Under the pieces are notes generated by a model, which did no database searches, was not told where the DNA came from, and was given only the letters and a program-made list of their open reading frames with translations. From IMG/VR virus record IMGVR_UViG_3300037424_000558, positions 1 to 45,308 of that record: a stretch of 45,308 nt of DNA; one strand, written 5' to 3'. Below, one piece after another: positions 1-45,308 of the stretch (positions within the stretch are counted from its first letter, which is position 1; each line of letters starts with the position of its first letter). This DNA is from a virus. Taxonomy: Duplodnaviria; Caudoviricetes. The position numbers were made by a program, and so were the translations under genes.

Positions 1-127
1 CTTGTATTTAGCAACCTGACCCCAAGAAAAAGTATCGATGGTAAAGTTGAGGACGTTGTTTTCTTTGGACTCCAATATTTCATAAAGGAATATTTGATGT
101 TTAAGTGGAACAAATACTTCTTTGAGG
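1..127. repeat. Terminal direct repeat (127 bp), copy 1; circular-assembly overlap
   Basis: 1-127 (cttgtattta...ctttgagg) is identical to 45182-45308, and a reading frame runs through the junction. Confidence 0.97.
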
Positions 128-1383
128 AGCCAAAAGAAAAGGTTGTGAACGATTACAAGCGCAGAATTGAAACGTCGCTCGGCAAGGGCGCGATAACTTT
201 CGAACACGTTGAAGCTCTTCACGATTTGGGATATTTGCCAATTGAAATAAAGGCATTGCCAGAGGGTTCATTAATCCCGTTTAAAGTCCCGTGCCTGGTA
301 ATTTACAACACAGACCCAGAATTTTTTTGGCTCACAAATTACCTCGAAACAATTCTTTCGTGTGTTATCTGGGGGGCTTGTACTTCTGCTACGACGGCAC
401 ACCGGTATAAAAAAATACTTAATGAGTACGCAGATTTAACCGTGGGTAACCGTGATTTCGTGCAATGGCAGGGACACGACTTTTCTTTTCGTGGCATGTT
501 TGGATTTGAGGCGGCCTGTATATCTGGAGCCGGACACCTTCTTTCCTTCACAGGAACTGACACGATACCAGCAATTGATTTTCATGAAAATTATTATGGA
601 GCAAATTCAGAAAATGAATTGATTGGTGCAAGCGTACCGGCAACCGAACATTCTGTAATGTGTATGGGTTCGGAAGAAAATGAAATCGGTACATTTAAGC
701 GACTGATTTCTGAAATATATCCAAACGGGATTGTTAGCATTGTTTCGGATAGCTGGGACTTTTGGAGAGTTATTACCGAATACTTGCCAAAGCTAAAAGA
801 TTTAATTTTAGCAAGAAACGGCAAGGTAGTTATCAGGCCAGATTCCGGAGACCCTGTAAAAATTATCTGTGGTGATAAAAGTGCCGTTGTCGGTAGTCCG
901 GAATATAAAGGTGCTATTGAGTGCATGTGGGAGGTTTTCGGCGGGACTATAACTGATAAAGAGTTTAAGCTTTTAGACTCTCATATCGGGTTAATTTACG
1001 GTGATAGTATAACTGTCGAACGATGCAAGGACATTTGCCAACAATTGTCCGACAAAGGATTTGCATCATTTAACGTCGTATTTGGTATCGGATCATATAC
1101 TTATCAGTATGTTACCCGTGATACGATGGGTTTTGCGATGAAGGCGACTTACGGTGAAATTAACGGGCAGCCGAAAGAGATCTTCAAAAAACCGAAAACT
1201 GACAACGGCGGCAAAGTTAGCGCCAGGGGGCTTGTTGCTGTCGATGATTCCCACGGTAAATTTTTACTTGTCGATCAAGTGGGTTGGGATCGTGTAAATA
1301 ACTGTAAATTAAAAACAGTTTTTAAAGATGGCAAACTGGTTGTCGATCAATCCTTGTCGGACATTCGGAAAATGCTTGGTTAA
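1..1383 (+). CDS. Nicotinamide phosphoribosyltransferase-family protein (Namat-like, NARP1), 3' part; gene starts at 45107 and crosses the junction (about 485 aa)
   Basis: Frame open from base 1 (LVFSNLTPR...). NAMPT motifs HDFSFRG, GHLLSFTGTD, SVPATEHSVM, SIVSDSWD, VIRPDSGDP, LIYGDSIT, FGIGSYTYQ, RDTMGFAMKAT. Confidence 0.93.
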   Translation, partial: LVFSNLTPRKSIDGKVEDVVFFGLQYFIKEYLMFKWNKYFFEEPKEKVVNDYKRRIETSLGKGAITFEHVEALHDLGYLPIEIKALPEGSLIPFKVPCLVIYNTDPEFFWLTNYLETILSCVIWGACTSATTAHRYKKILNEYADLTVGNRDFVQWQGHDFSFRGMFGFEAACISGAGHLLSFTGTDTIPAIDFHENYYGANSENELIGASVPATEHSVMCMGSEENEIGTFKRLISEIYPNGIVSIVSDSWDFWRVITEYLPKLKDLILARNGKVVIRPDSGDPVKIICGDKSAVVGSPEYKGAIECMWEVFGGTITDKEFKLLDSHIGLIYGDSITVERCKDICQQLSDKGFASFNVVFGIGSYTYQYVTRDTMGFAMKATYGEINGQPKEIFKKPKTDNGGKVSARGLVAVDDSHGKFLLVDQVGWDRVNNCKLKTVFKDGKLVVDQSLSDIRKMLG

Positions 1384-1388
1384 TAACC

Positions 1389-1565
1389 ATGGTTAAAACG
1401 ATATACCTATCGGACAAAGAGGCCTCTATTTTTTCGGAAATAGAGGTTCTTGCTAAACGCGATGACCGTGGTGTTGGATATAAAATAATTGAAATATTCC
1501 GTGAATGGAAAGGGCTTAAAGAAAGTACCGAGGCAGGAAGCCGAGGTCTTAGACGTCACGATTAA
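1389..1565 (+). CDS. Small ribbon-helix-helix (Arc/CopG-like) DNA-binding protein, 58 aa (absent from ORF track)
   Basis: ATG 5 nt after the Namat stop; MVKTIYLSDKEASIFSEIEVLAKRDDRGVGYKIIEIFREW... shows a beta-strand/helix/turn/helix RHH pattern; ends just before an attC-like site. Confidence 0.6.
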   Translation: MVKTIYLSDKEASIFSEIEVLAKRDDRGVGYKIIEIFREWKGLKESTEAGSRGLRRHD

Positions 1566-1578
1566 TTAATTGCATTTC

Positions 1579-1674
1579 ACCTAACGTTTGAGATTATGAG
1601 ACGGTTTCGTTATTTGCGAAACTGTGCCGAAGGCCAAGCCGGTATTCCGGCGAAGCTCATAATCTCTGTTAGGT
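1579..1674 (+). repeat. attC-like recombination site C
   Basis: ACCTAAC-GTTT-GAGATTATGAG(1590-1600)...three internal hairpins...CTCATAATCTC(1656-1666)-T-GTTAGGT. Confidence 0.8.
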
Positions 1675-1755
1675 GATGAATTTGCTACGACGATGAACTG
1701 GCACGGATGCCAGTGAAACATGGACTTATATTTTAAAAGTCAAAGGAGAATTAAA

Positions 1756-1962
1756 ATGAGAAAATAATACATTGATGAATTAAATTCATTAGAAGAGAGA
1801 ATGATAAAGGCTGAATACTTTGCTGAAAAAATACCAGTTCTTAGGGATGTTATTTTGGAAAATAAATATACCGAAGATGAGAAATACATTCAATCTGGAA
1901 GAACAGTTAGCTATTACAAATGATTAGACAGACACGATGTCTGGCTTTACTGTTATGATTGA
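1756..1962 (+). pseudogene. Disrupted cassette gene (MRK*YIDELNSLEERMIKAEYF...YYK*LDRHDVWLYCYD*)
   Basis: Strong RBS AAAGGAG before ATG 1756; in-frame TAA at codon 4 and TGA at codon 56; the frame fills the unit between sites C and D. Confidence 0.5.
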
Positions 1963-1975
1963 CTGCAAATTTTTC

Positions 1976-2030
1976 ACCTAACGCTTGCGCGTAGACGCCG
2001 TTTCCAATGGCGTTTGGCGCGCTGTTAGGT
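1976..2030 (+). repeat. attC-like recombination site D
   Basis: ACCTAAC-GCTT-GCGCGTAGACGCC...GGCGTTTGGCGCGC-T-GTTAGGT, 55 bp. Confidence 0.8.
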
Positions 2031-2099
2031 GATGTGCCAAAAGCGGAGTAAATTACATAAGCCATGGATGGCTTGAATAAAACATGGGAGATAAAGAAA

Positions 2100-2429
2100 A
2101 TGGATTTAATAAAACAATTTGAAAAAGAAAGTGGTCTTACATACCCAAAACATGACATGTCGGCTCAAGCCAATTTTGATGAACTATATGAAGAGTGGCT
2201 TGAAAATAAATTACGATGGATTGACATATCATACGACCTACCCAAAGAATCGGAAATTGTTGATATAATTGAAAAAAACTCAAACCGCCGAATACCGGAT
2301 GTTTTATTTAAAGCAGGTAAATTCTATTATTCAGTTTACGGTATATCCGAAATGGTTGAATTAACGACAGTTAAGTATTGGTATAAATTACCATCTATTC
2401 CAAAGCTCTGCACGGATGCAGAGCCGTGA
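2100..2429 (+). CDS. DUF551-like phage protein (cassette gene)
   Basis: RBS GGGAG before ATG 2100; WIDISYDLP...VKYWYKLPSIP matches the W-x-x-x-x-x-x-LP ... V-x-x-W-x-x-LP pattern of DUF551. Confidence 0.6.
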   Translation: MDLIKQFEKESGLTYPKHDMSAQANFDELYEEWLENKLRWIDISYDLPKESEIVDIIEKNSNRRIPDVLFKAGKFYYSVYGISEMVELTTVKYWYKLPSIPKLCTDAEP

Positions 2430-2442
2430 ATTTTGGCATTTC

Positions 2443-2521
2443 ACCTAACGCTGAGAATGGCCGAAGTTTTTTCGTCAGAAAAAATTTGGGGCGTATTTCG
2501 CCCGGCCATTCTCTGTTAGCG
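2443..2521 (+). repeat. attC-like recombination site E
   Basis: ACCTAAC-GCT-GAGAATGGCCG(2453-2463)...CGGCCATTCTC(2503-2513)-T-GTTAGCG. Confidence 0.8.
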
Positions 2522-2665
2522 GCTGTATTTTTTTTTGAACTATGACGAAACAGGAGGTTGAGGAACCAGTAAAAAAAGTTCGTTTTTTTGCTCTTTTTTA
2601 TTAAATAATACTTGCTTTTTTGGTCGATATATATAGTATGTACTATACTGTATTTAAGAGAGGGT

Positions 2666-2926
2666 ATGAAAATGAATATAACAGCAAACACAATAAAGTC
2701 AGGATCTAAGAACCTGTCTCAATCATGTACTTCGTTTGGGTGGGATAGTTATCTTATTGATAGTGATGACAATGTTATTGAGATATACACTAATAATGCT
2801 TCATCGGTTGGTCGCGCTCATAAAGGTGCTATTAAATATTTTCAAAATAATAGTAATAGTAAAATTTATACAAGAAAAAGTGGTGGGGATTGCTCATCAT
2901 ATGATGAAAGAACTACTCGGATATAA
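2666..2926 (+). CDS. Hypothetical protein (cassette gene)
   Basis: RBS GAGAGGG before ATG 2666; first of three tandem ORFs in the unit 2515-3366. Confidence 0.65.
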   Translation: MKMNITANTIKSGSKNLSQSCTSFGWDSYLIDSDDNVIEIYTNNASSVGRAHKGAIKYFQNNSNSKIYTRKSGGDCSSYDERTTRI

Positions 2927-2936
2927 GGTGATTATT

Positions 2937-3104
2937 ATGATATTAATAGCAATAGAACAAAATATGTATCAAGTTAAAAATTCAGTATACAAAAAATTAC
3001 TCAAATATTTTTCTGAGGATGAAGATAAATATAATAATTTGCTTCAAGAAATCCAGAATATGAATGAATCTACCGGTGTTGTTCAAACATTTTATTATAA
3101 ATAG
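2937..3104 (+). CDS. Hypothetical protein, 55 aa (cassette gene)
   Basis: AAGGTG RBS and ATG 2937 in the frame of track ORF 2736..3104; fits between neighbours without overlap. Confidence 0.55.
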   Translation: MILIAIEQNMYQVKNSVYKKLLKYFSEDEDKYNNLLQEIQNMNESTGVVQTFYYK

Positions 3105-3106
3105 CT

Positions 3107-3322
3107 ATGTCACAGGGTCAATACATAACCGCCCTATACAAAGCCCATGCAGCCCGTGAACAAGCGCGAGCGCACCTGATCGCGTTCATCGAAAACCACC
3201 CGATGTCAGGACGACAAAAGGCAATTTTATTCGGGTGGGGTGAGAATAATTATAATCACCGGATCAAGGCGATATCGGATAGTAAACTGATTGAGGCGGT
3301 GGAGATTTTGAGCCGACACTAA
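3107..3322 (+). CDS. Small protein, possible helix-turn-helix regulator
   Basis: MSGRQKAILFGWGENNYNHRIK segment resembles an HTH; last gene of the unit. Confidence 0.5.
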   Translation: MSQGQYITALYKAHAAREQARAHLIAFIENHPMSGRQKAILFGWGENNYNHRIKAISDSKLIEAVEILSRH

Positions 3323-3347
3323 GTCGGCGTTATTGGTAGGAAGTATT

Positions 3348-3366
3348 AAAAAATATTGCCGCTAAC
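3348..3366 (+). repeat. Left half of a truncated attC-like site F (end of array)
   Basis: AAAAAATA-TT-GCCGCTAAC is the inverse complement of the unit start GTTAGCGGC-TG-TATTTTTT at 2515; no matching GTT half found downstream. Confidence 0.65.
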
Positions 3367-3446
3367 TATAATTAAATGAAACTCGGATTAGACGAAATAA
3401 ACATTCGTGATAAGTCCAGAATTGGCGGATTAGACGAAGTAAAATT

Positions 3447-3926
3447 TCATACAAATAATCCAGTCGGATCAATCTTTTTTGTACGGTCAAAATATTCCCC
3501 AGGAGAACCGTCAAAATGCAGGTGTGGGCCGAAACTATATCCGGCGTCTCCGTATTGACCAAGTTTTTCACCTTGTTTAACAGTTTGACCAATTTTTACA
3601 ATATTTTCGGTTAGGTGGCAATATCGGAAACAATATGATTTCCCATCTATCAGAATACGCAAAATTACCATATTCCCCACAGAATCTTGAGACCGAAGCC
3701 ATCGAAAACGTTCGTCGTAAATGTCATAATCGAAATTAATTACACCGTCAGCCACCGAGATACAATCTCTATTCGCGTGAAATAAGTTTTGTCCCGGCCT
3801 ATTTTGATCTGGGACTGCGTTTACAAAATCAATGCCGTCATGGAATTGCTCGACCCCGTTTAGAATTCGCTTCCCATAACCGGAGGTAACATATTTGTCA
3901 TGTACCGGATAAATTAATTTGCTCAT
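3447..3926 (-). CDS. M23 family peptidase, endolysin
   Basis: VTSGYG, HDGIDF (HxxxD), YCHL, GPHLHF (HxH) motifs; adjacent to holin. Confidence 0.88.
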   Translation of the reverse strand: MSKLIYPVHDKYVTSGYGKRILNGVEQFHDGIDFVNAVPDQNRPGQNLFHANRDCISVADGVINFDYDIYDERFRWLRSQDSVGNMVILRILIDGKSYCFRYCHLTENIVKIGQTVKQGEKLGQYGDAGYSFGPHLHFDGSPGEYFDRTKKIDPTGLFV

Positions 3927-4390: not shown

Positions 4391-4435
4391 AGTAAATAAA
4401 AAAGTGATTGACACGGGATATATTGTGTATATTAT
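4391..4435 (+). promoter_or_regulatory. Sigma70-like promoter with A-tract UP element
   Basis: AGTAAATAAAAAAGTGA-TTGACA(4408-4413)-16 nt-TATTAT; member of a repeated motif family. Confidence 0.6.
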
Positions 4436-4728: not shown

Positions 4729-4835
4729 GCGGCAACGGTTCCCGGCGGGTTCGATTCCCGCCGCCGCAAACCGGGCAACCGGACAACCTCCGAACAGAGG
4801 TTCCTCTGACCGTTTGTTAAACTGGTCGGAGGTTG
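4729..4835 (+). ncRNA. Candidate structured RNA with a tRNA/tmRNA-like T-arm
   Basis: GGCGGG-TTCGATT-CCCGCC T-loop hairpin inside GCGGC/GCCGC; CCGG-GCAA-CCGG; CAACCTCCGA/TCGGAGGTTG stem; GC-rich intergenic island. Confidence 0.4.
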
Positions 4836-15183: not shown

Positions 15184-15606
15184 ATGAGAGAAAATATTTT
15201 ATCAGAAATAAAAAAACTTGAACAGAGAGACCATGAATGGATTTTAAATCAATTACAAGGTCTGGTTATGGAAAGCAAAAAAATATCAACTCCGGCGGAT
15301 ATTTATTCAAAATATCTATTAAAATACAGTAATAAAAAACAAGAACATTTTATCGTTATTGAGCTTGACGGTGGAAATAAAGTTCAAAAATGCAGGGTCA
15401 TCACAAAAGGTCTTTTAAATAGTTCACAGGTTCACCCCGGTGACGTTTTAAGAGTAAATGGGCAGGCATTAAAAGAATCTTTGAAATTAATTATTATTGG
15501 TGACGATGTGTATTTTAATTATTCTGGAAATATTTGGAAATACAATTTCACAACTGGAATGGTAACTAATTTTTATATTGGAACAGGAGAAATCAGGTCA
15601 TGGTAA
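15184..15606 (+). CDS. RadC/JAB-like protein lacking the HNHPSG motif
   Basis: KISTPAD, KQEHFIVIELD, ITKGLLNSSQVHP and IIIGDD match RadC, but the JAMM core is absent. Confidence 0.7.
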   Translation: MRENILSEIKKLEQRDHEWILNQLQGLVMESKKISTPADIYSKYLLKYSNKKQEHFIVIELDGGNKVQKCRVITKGLLNSSQVHPGDVLRVNGQALKESLKLIIIGDDVYFNYSGNIWKYNFTTGMVTNFYIGTGEIRSW

Positions 15607-39430: not shown

Positions 39431-40013
39431 CGGGATAATCTACAGCTTTTCCCTTCCATTTAACAATATCCGGGGCATCGAGCTTCTCTTTTATCGGTTT
39501 AACATCCAAATCCTTTCTGAAAATTGCTTTTATCGGTTTAACATCCAAATCCTTTCTGAAAATTGCTTGCACCGTTACACCTGCCAGACCCATAAGAGGG
39601 ATCGGAATAGCCGCCCACAATACCCACGCGATTTTCAGGGCGTCAAGACCCTTGACAATATCCCACGTCATCTCCCGGCCTGTTTTATCGGCCATGTTTG
39701 TAATTGCATACAGCATATTTCCGGATAAATTAATCAGGAAGAAAAAAATCAATATCCCGATTAAGAACCCCAAAACTGCATTTGATTTTTTCCGGCGTGT
39801 TAATAAATCGGCAACCCCGACCGCCGTTAAGACCTCGAAAACCTGTAAACCAGCGGCGGCAAACCAGACGCCAGTAAAAAACAGTTCCGATCTGTACGCA
39901 GACTTCTCGACCACGTTCAAGGCCGATGCGATATGATCGGCTGACAACATTAATACAAATATCGTCGCCGCCAATGTCCCATAATATTTAATTTGTGCTT
40001 GTGTTATTTTCAT
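39330..40013 (-). CDS. Four-TM membrane protein
   Basis: Four hydrophobic segments; AGGAG RBS; Pro-rich tail. Confidence 0.7.
   Translation of the reverse strand: MKITQAQIKYYGTLAATIFVLMLSADHIASALNVVEKSAYRSELFFTGVWFAAAGLQVFEVLTAVGVADLLTRRKKSNAVLGFLIGILIFFFLINLSGNMLYAITNMADKTGREMTWDIVKGLDALKIAWVLWAAIPIPLMGLAGVTVQAIFRKDLDVKPIKAIFRKDLDVKPIKEKLDAPDIVKWKGKAVDYPGEHGVDWKPEPRPVSEPEPYDPDQPEKQSQPGG
39488..39568. repeat. 39-bp perfect tandem duplication (in frame)
   Basis: cttttatcggtttaacatccaaatcctttctgaaaattg x2, encoding AIFRKDLDVKPIK twice. Confidence 0.95.
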
Positions 40014-40859: not shown

Positions 40860-41324
40860 CGGTTTTACTCCCCCAATTCCTGTACAATCGCCTCACGTTC
40901 GGAATATCCGGCGTAAAAGTACTCTTGCCAGATAACGGCGGAGTCCGGTTCAAAATATAATCCGGCTGGATCGTAGCCAAATTCATTTTCTGCGATAAAT
41001 CGCAGGCGGTCAAAGTAATGTGTGAATCCATCCATTATCGACCGCCTCGCTTTTCCTTAACCCTTCCCAACCTATTCAATTCCGCAGGTTTCCAGATCCG
41101 TTCTTTAGCCGCTTCTTTTACGGCCTCCAGAAAAATCATGTCCACGTCGTGTTTAGTGCGTTGCTTGCCAGCTTTGTTTTCGTTCATAATTAATTATCGG
41201 ATTATGTCACTTTTCCTTTAGCGATTTTTTGAAAAGCCAGTGTTCCAAATATTTTCTTTCATATTGCCCAATATCCTGTCAATCTTTTTTTTACTTACTT
41301 TTGCCATCAATTTTTTATTTACGA

Positions 41325-43422: not shown

Positions 43423-43446
43423 AGTAAGTAAAAAAATGATTGACAA
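43423..43446 (+). promoter_or_regulatory. Repeated early-type promoter element upstream of the cassette array
   Basis: 24-mer identical to 15132-15155 with TTGACA. Confidence 0.7.
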
Positions 43447-43491
43447 TATGAGTAAGATTTTAATTGTATTTTATTTCGAGGGTAAAATATT

Positions 43492-43671
43492 ATGAGAATT
43501 AAACACCCAGAAACACTATATGAATTAATAAAACATATAGAGACCAGTATACGATATGCTAAAGATAACGGCAAAAATATAGAAATTTTACTTGGTGAAA
43601 GTATTTATCCATTATTGGAAAATCTTAAAGAAGATTATGAATATTTGGAACTTGCAAAACAGAATGAATAA
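43492..43671 (+). CDS. Hypothetical protein, 59 aa (not in ORF track); first unit of array
   Basis: GAGGGT RBS; MRIKHPETLYELIKHIETSIRYAKDNG... Confidence 0.65.
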   Translation: MRIKHPETLYELIKHIETSIRYAKDNGKNIEILLGESIYPLLENLKEDYEYLELAKQNE

Positions 43672-43725
43672 TGACCAGAGCCGCCAAGGATGGCGGCGAT
43701 ATTGTAGATTAAACTGCATTATTGC

Positions 43726-43799
43726 ACCTAACGTTTGCGCATACACGAAGCCGCGAAGCGGTTTGGGTTTGTACTCAAACCGTGTATGCGCTGTTGTGC
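43726..43799 (+). repeat. attC-like recombination site A
   Basis: ACCTAAC-GTTT-GCGCATACACG(43737-43747)...CGTGTATGCGC(43781-43791)-T-GTTGTGC. Confidence 0.8.
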
Positions 43800-43840
43800 G
43801 AGGGAACGGGCTACAAAATTAAATTACATAGGAGAATATT

Positions 43841-44038: not shown

Positions 44039-44053
44039 AACGCCCGTTCTTTC

Positions 44054-44152
44054 GCACAACGGTAAGATTACAAGACGTTTTTGCTTTTGCAAAAATGTGG
44101 TCGCCAGACCCGAGGCCACGCAGGTGGCCGGAGCTTGTAATCTTAGTTATGT
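44054..44152 (+). repeat. attC-like recombination site B
   Basis: GCACAAC-GG-TAAGATTACAAG(44063-44074)...CTTGTAATCTTA(44134-44145)-GTTATGT. Confidence 0.8.
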
Positions 44153-44216
44153 GCTGATTTTGCTCGGATATGATGCAAACACGAGGTTTGCGAAACACCA
44201 AAGATATAAAAAATAG

Positions 44217-44246
44217 TTGACGGTGTATGTATATTATTAATATATT
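44217..44246 (+). promoter_or_regulatory. Candidate internal promoter of the NARP1 unit
   Basis: TTGACG at 44217 followed by an AT-rich -10 region just before ATG 44253. Confidence 0.45.
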
Positions 44247-44252
44247 AAATAA

Positions 44253-45110
44253 ATGAGTTACGATATTAAAAAAACTATTATAAATCTTGATGAGAATTTT
44301 GCCCCTTATGGGGATGGTATTCCATACCAAAAATTTATGTTCCCAAGCAGATGCGAAGATCACGTAAAGTTGTCGAAAATAAATGGCAATGAAGTTATAA
44401 TCACTACACGGATAAAATCATCTGACGATATTATTTTTCTGTTATTGGCGACCGATGCAATACGCAGGATGGGCATAAAAAGCATTGAAGTATTTATCCC
44501 CTATTTCCCTTATGCCAGGCAGGACAGAATAATGGTTGAGGGCGAACCTTTCTCACTAAAGGTATTTTCGGATTTAATCAATTCACAGGACTATGAGAAT
44601 GTTACCATTTACGATGTTCATTCCGATGTTGCAACCGCATTAATAGGCAACGTAAAGCCGATTTCTAATCATGCATTTGTAAAATCAGTATTGCATGGTA
44701 AAGAAAATTACTTAATTGTTTCGCCAGATGCTGGAGCGTATAAAAAAATATTTAACTTATGTTCGTCAATTGAATATAAAGATGAAATAATATTATGCAA
44801 TAAATACCGGGATGCTTCTACCGGAAACATTAAACGTATAGATTGCGAGATATACAATTTTAAAAACAAGGATTTATTTATAGTTGATGACATTTGTGAT
44901 GGCGGGGCAACTTTTAACATGATTGCCGATGAGTTCAGAAAACGTGGAACGTGCGGGGAAATTAATCTAATAGTTTCGCACGGGATATTTTCAAAAGGTT
45001 TGGATGTATTTCCGAACATTGATAATATTTATACCACGAATTCTTTTTGCGACATTGCGCCACACAACAAATTGACACAGATAAATCTAAAAGGAGAATT
45101 ATTAAAATGA
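44253..45110 (+). CDS. Ribose-phosphate pyrophosphokinase-family protein (Adps-like, NARP1)
   Basis: IPYFPYARQDR, DVHS, VSPDAGA, IVDDICDGGATF, VSHGIFSKG, TTNS motifs; ATGA-coupled to the Nampt-like gene. Confidence 0.92.
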   Translation: MSYDIKKTIINLDENFAPYGDGIPYQKFMFPSRCEDHVKLSKINGNEVIITTRIKSSDDIIFLLLATDAIRRMGIKSIEVFIPYFPYARQDRIMVEGEPFSLKVFSDLINSQDYENVTIYDVHSDVATALIGNVKPISNHAFVKSVLHGKENYLIVSPDAGAYKKIFNLCSSIEYKDEIILCNKYRDASTGNIKRIDCEIYNFKNKDLFIVDDICDGGATFNMIADEFRKRGTCGEINLIVSHGIFSKGLDVFPNIDNIYTTNSFCDIAPHNKLTQINLKGELLK

Positions 45111-45308
45111 AGATTAACCCATTAAGTCAAATTGATTTCTACAAGGCAGACCATAGGAGCCAATACCCTACAGGAACAGAACTTGTATTTAGCAACCTGA
45201 CCCCAAGAAAAAGTATCGATGGTAAAGTTGAGGACGTTGTTTTCTTTGGACTCCAATATTTCATAAAGGAATATTTGATGTTTAAGTGGAACAAATACTT
45301 CTTTGAGG
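45107..45308 (+). CDS. Nampt-family protein (Namat-like), 5' part, continues at base 1
   Basis: AAAGGAG RBS; MKINPLSQIDFYKADHRSQYP N-terminal NAMPT motif (D-x-YK-x-x-H-x-x-Q-YP). Confidence 0.92.
   Translation, partial: MKINPLSQIDFYKADHRSQYPTGTELVFSNLTPRKSIDGKVEDVVFFGLQYFIKEYLMFKWNKYFFE
45182..45308. repeat. Terminal direct repeat (127 bp), copy 2
   Basis: Identical to 1-127. Confidence 0.97.

Follow-up and report, generated by a model that had tools for sequence, protein, structure and literature searches.

A phage-borne, integrase-less array of gene cassettes with paired ends and its proposed exchange by a borrowed recombinase lacking I2

How might a phage that encodes no integrase carry, and exchange, a row of gene cassettes? 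The locus described here raises this question. The window, meaning the whole stretch of 45,308 nucleotides that was analysed, is circular, with positions 1-127 repeating 45182-45308 (direct terminal repeats of 127 nt), and it is the complete record of a 45-kb phage encoding a lambda-like head, a contractile tail, RecE, RecT, SSB and a ligase. A preliminary description had recognised no tyrosine or serine recombinase in it, and PF00589, TIGR02249 (the integron integrase family) and PF00239 likewise gave no match in the complete record; a profile of the recombinases found beside related cellular arrays (see below) reached a best E of 1.1 against the phage proteins. Compared with GenBank phages, the array DNA gave weak matches of 33-51 nt at most. 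The terminase, the sheath and a 249-aa tail protein have no close relative among those phages and thus provided no clue to the host, neither for nor against Spirochaetota, whose genomes the preliminary description proposed to search. The sites of the array and the elements bounding it are as follows, core coordinates being the C of AAC and the G of GTT.

43423..43450, plus strand: promoter-like repeat of the TTGACA family heading the array, one of six genome copies
43715..43810, plus strand: site A, with left R arm, 60-nt hairpin and right R arm; cores 43732/43793
44043..44163, plus strand: site B, 85-nt hairpin; cores 44060/44146
1568..1685, plus strand: site C, 82-nt hairpin; cores 1585/1668
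1965..2041, plus strand: site D, 41-nt imperfect hairpin; cores 1982/2024
2432..2532, plus strand: site E, 65-nt hairpin; cores 2449/2515
3349..3382, plus strand: terminal half-site F, with R arm, AAC and a non-hairpin backbone arm
3447..3926, minus strand: M23 endolysin gene of the backbone, convergent with the array and marking its boundary, at the same position in the related phage L001

All five palindromic sites and the half-site previously reported were located, the half-site ending at 3366. A genome scan for AAC-arm...arm-GTT, requiring at least 10 of 11 arm pairs and so missing the imperfect site D, returned four matches, all inside the array, and none on the other strand, in keeping with the earlier statement that such sites occur nowhere else; 30 shuffled genomes gave 0-2 matches each (17 in total). 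The inner arms form a perfect 11-bp duplex in four of the five sites, with a bulge of 2-3 nt beside the core. Integron attC sites are defined by an unpaired central spacer and by extrahelical bases in the L arm. The window sites have no extrahelical bases within the arm and lack this open spacer. At least two R-box-bounded hairpins nevertheless lie between co-oriented genes without an integrase, the arrangement that defines a CALIN. No Rfam family matched any site, and a terminator scan flagged no whole site on the gene strand.

Further arrays were found in three other phages. L001 (IMGVR_UViG_3300005829_000005), whose endolysin is 63% identical, carries one at the same place with different genes; L094 (3300012964_000055) has a tail-fibre protein 37% identical to that of the window, and L133 (3300012964_000703) was reached through an unrelated leader motif. 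Across the four phages, the gene-sense strand folds more stably than its complement at 16/16 sites. It is very probable that the sites originated as recombination sites. Other routes to relatives were less productive: viral scans with the 249-aa protein and the terminase yielded no locus and one locus without an array, respectively; a metagenome scan with the endolysin yielded three loci, with no array in either of the two examined; and a short left-core pattern matched viral contigs 64 times, nearly always without hairpin or pairing, with arrays only at L094 and L121/L122.

A key property of the array, overlooked in the preliminary description, concerns the ends of neighbouring sites. The 18 nt beginning at the GTT of one site pair with the left flank of the next at 16/18 positions for A-B, C-D, D-E and E-F, and at only 7/18 for B-C. 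Every intact cassette has the same pattern of 9 bp, two mismatches (positions 10-11) and 7 bp. By comparison, the outer flanks of a single site in the window pair with each other at 7-9 of 18 positions, so the palindromic attC layout proposed earlier holds for the inner arms, while the outer cores are complementary to those of the neighbouring site. Elsewhere in the genome a 16/18 pair occurs once, inside the NARP1 genes described below and without hairpins, and 2/20 shuffles also produced one. The four phages provide 17 consecutive pairs, of which 13 match at 15/18 or more, one at 13, one at 11 and two at 6-7; because a pairing scan helped to locate some sites of the relatives, the count is not entirely blind, although intervals that did not pair were retained in it. 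Non-adjacent site pairs in the same phages (n = 323) average 8.4 matches, nine of them reaching at least 15. Positions 10-11 match in 0/17 consecutive pairs, whereas the outer 7 bp are matched at 101/119 positions; in 100,000 shuffles the mean was 40 and the highest value 80.

Because the pairing runs end to end across each gene, closing a cassette into a circle would restore one long stem, consisting of the outer R duplex, the 2-3-nt bulge and the 11-bp inner arm. The predicted circle sites form such a single long stem for A-B, C-D and D-E, and not for B-C. At the level of sequence, the offset pairing is the footprint to be expected of circular cassettes whose ends fold together.

The genes and reusable segments lying between the sites are listed below.

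43492..43671, plus strand: 59-aa ORF of no family, whose upstream partner site is absent
43669..43732, plus strand: reusable trailer running from stop codon through AAC, with 56/64 identity to one of L133 and common to L001
43841..44038, plus strand: cassette A-B gene, 65 aa, weakly Lar-like; ends pair 16/18
44253..45110, plus strand: PRPS-like gene, 285 aa, Adps of NARP1 by family and adjacency
45107..45308, then 1..1383 across the junction, plus strand: Namat gene, 485 aa, Nampt fold
1389..1565, plus strand: 58-aa ORF of no family
1756..1923, plus strand: cassette C-D gene, with a strong RBS and an in-frame TAA at codon 4; ends pair 16/18
2024..2102, plus strand: reusable leader running from GTT through ATG, with 75/79 identity to one of L133
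2100..2429, plus strand: cassette D-E gene, 109 aa, its homologues being DUF551 proteins; ends pair 16/18
2666..3322, plus strand: cassette E-F cargo, three ORFs of 86, 55 and 71 aa; ends pair 16/18

Within this cargo, families were found for the A-B protein (weakly Lar-like), the DUF551-related D-E protein and NARP1 in B-C, and for none of the others. The match of the A-B protein to Lar (Pfam E 0.013) is below the cut-off; it is 31% identical over 54 aa to a Lar-like protein of L094. The cargo appears to be accessory and may in part serve counter-defence through the Lar-like gene. Promoter-like sequences precede the E-F cargo (2612-2636) and the PRPS-like gene (44217-44246). An ESM Atlas search returned only leads under 0.9. 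A relative of the D-E protein, 83% identical, is encoded on the 43,034-base contig P0002 (Logan/ENA/JGI; P0005 and P0006 are also listed).

The B-C interval departs from the rest. Its adjacent Adps-like and Namat genes, the product of the latter carrying the published motif GSYTYQYVTRD, identify it by sequence as NARP1, here a putative NAD+-rebuilding system, in accordance with the adjacent PRPS-like and Nampt-like genes with a Namat motif described in PMC12774641. The presence of these 285-aa and 485-aa proteins corrects the statement that the sites lie only between small co-oriented genes. NARP1 is within the array, yet it is no paired cassette: we considered it as an intact cassette and rejected this, given that the B-C ends pair at so few positions. 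It likely came by another route and removed the B-C pairing. With this interval unpaired, the C-D gene broken and the terminal half-site degenerate (see below), the array in the window is probably partly decayed. No recombination, circle or skip-joint is visible in the Logan contigs from run X1, which may be the source sample, the A-B end being outside their coverage; they break at sites C and E and hold a variant over the E loop.

The related phages differ in cassette content, and the breakpoints fall at the AAC/GTT cores, as would be predicted for the integrase-less array first suggested. The DUF551-type cassette is followed after AAC by hairpin E in the window and by the docking site in L094, where it is the last cassette. 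Shared blocks also begin and end inside cassettes. The D-E leader, so similar to its L133 counterpart from GTT through ATG, matches it at 18/60 positions after that block and 11/40 before, and in L133 it precedes an unrelated gene behind a different hairpin. Likewise, the trailer before site A resembles that of L133 from the stop codon through AAC and falls to 17/60 before it; it recurs in L001, and the three genes that it follows (in the window, L133 and L001) are unrelated. The hairpin of site B is identical to one of L133 at 62/76 aligned bases with differing flanks, and one hairpin is common to L001 and L133 (128/143 identical) with both flanks different. Clear shared blocks were seen in 16 pairs between phages, and none of these pairs clearly had both a hairpin and the body next to it in common.

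Module borders therefore fall at AAC, GTT, ATG and stop codons. A single crossover at AA|C is insufficient to account for the last three of these; modular cassette building, activity on both strands or RecT annealing could provide the explanation. In three cases, two of them in L001 and one in L133, the gene that follows a hairpin has its RBS and ATG inside it (L001 11147-11563 and 10779-11054, minus strand; L133 5330-5662). The ORFs that start in these hairpins run through GTT into differing bodies, and N-termini in L001 and L133 share 19 residues. Small hairpins with CANGGATG in the loop were also noted in the leaders and trailers of cassettes (window 1702, 2063, 2411 and 43685), four of the six plus-strand genome copies lying inside the array, and occur in leaders and trailers of L001, L094 and L133; they resemble CsrA/RsmA binding sites.

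A strict site pattern had no matches in genomes. A looser pattern identified 47 cellular-genome loci, many in CPR and some in archaea and Bacteroidia, and 23 of these have paired cassettes with the 9+2+7 signature. Phage and cellular arrays have in common both this offset pairing and an AAC-GTTTGCG...CGCT-GTT asymmetry. A recombinase candidate is present at 11/47 loci, and at 7 of the 10 examined a half-site lies 60-225 bp before the start of a divergent recombinase. The expectation that homologous sites would be found in cellular genomes was thus borne out, with a recombinase beside them. The nine recombinases scanned are 270-289 aa long; TIGR02249 scores 196-221 bits in two stretches, against a cut-off of 265, and six of the nine pass the cut-off of NF040815. 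Compared with IntI4, the recombinase of locus L047 is missing about 43 residues at the position of the I2 domain, which PMC9176274 and PMC4792948 present as the hallmark of IntI. By sequence, then, the enzyme beside this site family is an IntI relative without I2, at variance with the canonical attC/IntI pairing first assumed. In the literature searched, largely without subscription journals, no I2-less enzyme is described for this site family and no named family was found for I2-less CPR/DPANN/Bacteroidia arrays.

On the downstream side of the genes, each of the four phage arrays finishes with AAC and hairpin-less backbone sequence, and no recombinase stub lies behind these ends. By analogy with the terminal half-site of cellular arrays, which is apparently the docking site, half-site F is probably the docking (attI-equivalent) site and the point of insertion. 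The docking arms of L001, L094 and L133 share 13, 14 and 11 of 16 nt, whereas the window half-site agrees with the other three phages at 7-9 of 16; scored with a matrix of nine host arms, it is in the top 2.1% of 673 positions. A probe built from the L001 and L094 docking sites found arrays in those two phages only, the other six of its eight matches having none. The centre of the site is 6 bp in the window and 7 bp in most host sites. In 4/4 phages the docking site reads 11-6-11 with TAA-6-TT cores, a layout like that of dif.

Gene direction distinguishes phage from cellular arrays. An RBS-led ORF points towards the half-site in 16/16 short intervals of the four phages (one being the broken gene); longest-ORF calling placed three of these intervals on the minus strand, and the RBS-led ORFs in them are on the plus strand. 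Of 54 intervals in cellular arrays, 51 have their longest ORF on the opposite strand, and the three exceptions are intervals of about 100 bp. With phage genes reading towards the docking site and host genes away from it, the site asymmetry is the same and the gene is reversed. Among other viral loci, L005 and L122 have the host-type polarity and L007 that of the window. At L005 (4031-4924, minus strand), a host-polarity phage cassette with the same site family, the end of a DNA methyltransferase gene reads into the hairpin. Paired cassettes are also present at L122 (1-6578, labelled a provirus), alongside which L131 (1462-2487, minus strand) was noted; a related recombinase of 341 aa at L122/L131 is co-directional with most of the cassette genes.

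We think it fairly likely that the locus is a cassette array with paired ends, swapped as folded single-stranded DNA circles by a tyrosine recombinase without I2 borrowed from the host. Folding, and cutting at AA|C, would take place on the gene-sense strand; new cassettes would be inserted at 3366 into the half-site, which would be double-stranded and adjoins the convergent endolysin gene, and older cassettes would be pushed towards the repeat at about 43440, which we infer acts as the phage promoter. Entry at this 3' half-site would leave the genes pointing at the docking site, opposite to those of host arrays. If the half-site is the docking site, as seems likely, the primary crossover would fall at AA|C on the gene strand, rather than at the G|TT first proposed. 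It is conceivable, though we advance it only tentatively, that phages hold their own pool of reversed cassettes, docked at a phage-borne dif-like site by the borrowed I2-less integrase, in which new cassettes arise when an ORF is dropped between a reusable leader (ATG) and trailer (stop): a living pre-integron system.

The array might instead be a relic, its cassettes once captured site-specifically and now reshuffled mainly by RecE/RecT annealing at short shared modules. This is compatible with the preferred reading as to origin and differs from it on present activity. The phage does encode RecE, RecT, SSB and ligase, and the broken cassette gene, the unpaired B-C interval, the degenerate docking site and mosaic boundaries at GTT, ATG and stop codons would all be accommodated. 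We nonetheless find it rather doubtful, as annealing has no need of pairing that keeps 16/18 matches and a fixed mismatch in 4/5 intervals, and the docking site is conserved in the three other phages. That the sites are RNA elements, either terminators or processing stems enclosing each gene, is very improbable. RNA could fold into an 18-bp stem enclosing each gene, and the CANGGATG hairpins in leaders and trailers would suit such a role, but cellular arrays have the same asymmetry beside a recombinase with genes on the opposite strand, and neither the terminator scan on the gene strand nor Rfam recognised a whole site.

Two further alternatives retain host-borne recombination and change the enzyme. 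Host XerCD might act as it does for CTX phage, with the docking site a dif mimic and the folded cassettes its partners. The dif-like 11-6-11 layout and TAA-6-TT cores of all four phages agree with this, and CTX itself uses folded single-stranded DNA and host XerCD (PMC4792948). However, the inner arms vary widely, a dedicated recombinase adjoins the same site family in cellular arrays, and the sites are bulged where the CTX stem, according to the same source, mimics double-stranded DNA; we judge XerCD a distinctly unlikely agent. Also unlikely is a canonical CALIN, with an ordinary attC downstream of each gene and host IntI recombining at G|TT. Its attractions are the RYYYAAC/GTTRRRY-like cores and the promiscuity of IntI1, which recombined 5/6 tested phage attC sites in the work of Qi et al. 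2023 (PMC9892861). The absence of I2 from the recombinases beside this site family, the perfect arms of four sites with no extrahelical bases inside, the hairpin-less half-site ending every phage array and the hairpins able to start a downstream gene argue against it.

Qi et al. reported 17 phage CALINs, and the earlier remark that no system of this kind was known in phages therefore does not hold. Like the array in the window, these are integrase-less attC-like clusters with proposed access to a host integrase and counter-defence cargo (methylases in their case). Canonical attC models served to detect them and IntI1 to test them, whereas the window family goes with an I2-less recombinase; the main text of PMC9892861 describes neither a docking site nor reversed genes, nor any comparative turnover, and its supplementary site lists may hold this family. 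Integrase-less attC clusters in phages have thus been published already; the reversed, modular form was not found described, nor were phage arrays with genes facing a docking site, in literature largely without subscription journals.

Classical integrons resemble the array in their R-box cores, complementary cassette ends, hairpin-less docking end and one strand that folds better. The window array differs in its extended 18-bp R duplex with a fixed mismatch at 10-11, in a perfect arm whose 2-3-nt bulge takes the place of an open spacer, in the I2-less enzyme of its family, in genes directed towards the docking site and in having no intI in cis. It is organised like an array of integron cassettes without qualifying as a classical integron. 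The rAID-1 elements of Bacteroidales (10.1101/471110) also have a variable gene array with integron-like intergenic repeats, together with an XerD-family recombinase; they are described there as chromosomal, with immunity cargo and with the recombinase in cis and co-directional, whereas the window encodes none. The 'reverse' integrons of Treponema (PMC3607928) also have an unusual polarity, but there intI reads towards attI and the genes away from it, while the window genes read towards the docking site; a Treponema-type reverse integron was rejected for this different geometry. CTX phage, too, lacks an integrase and relies on a tyrosine recombinase of the host, one without I2, acting on folded single-stranded DNA (PMC4792948); its whole genome enters a host site, whereas here cassettes would enter a phage-borne one.

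If the preferred reading is correct, phages swap accessory and counter-defence genes by means of cassettes without the cost of an enzyme, mirroring the bacterial integrons that stock defence genes. As the basic idea of integrase-less phage attC sites is in print, the surprise is limited. The sites offer test substrates for whether I2-less IntI relatives can recombine folded single-stranded sites, a chicken-and-egg problem raised in PMC4792948, and the leaders and trailers reused around unrelated ORFs with codon-exact borders offer substrates for the origin of cassettes.

Other features of the genome were noted in passing. The promoter-like motif ending in TTGACA has six conserved copies, at 4399, 5051, 15140 and 43431 on the plus strand and at 41290 and 37100 on the minus strand; a RadC-like JAB domain protein is encoded downstream of one (15184-15606). 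A GC-rich hairpin at 4730-4766 resembles a tRNA/tmRNA T-arm (Rfam E 0.006, below gathering; no gene by ARAGORN) and may represent a small RNA or what is left of an attachment site. Finally, at 39488-39565, within a 227-aa ORF near the terminase, 39 nt are perfectly duplicated in tandem.
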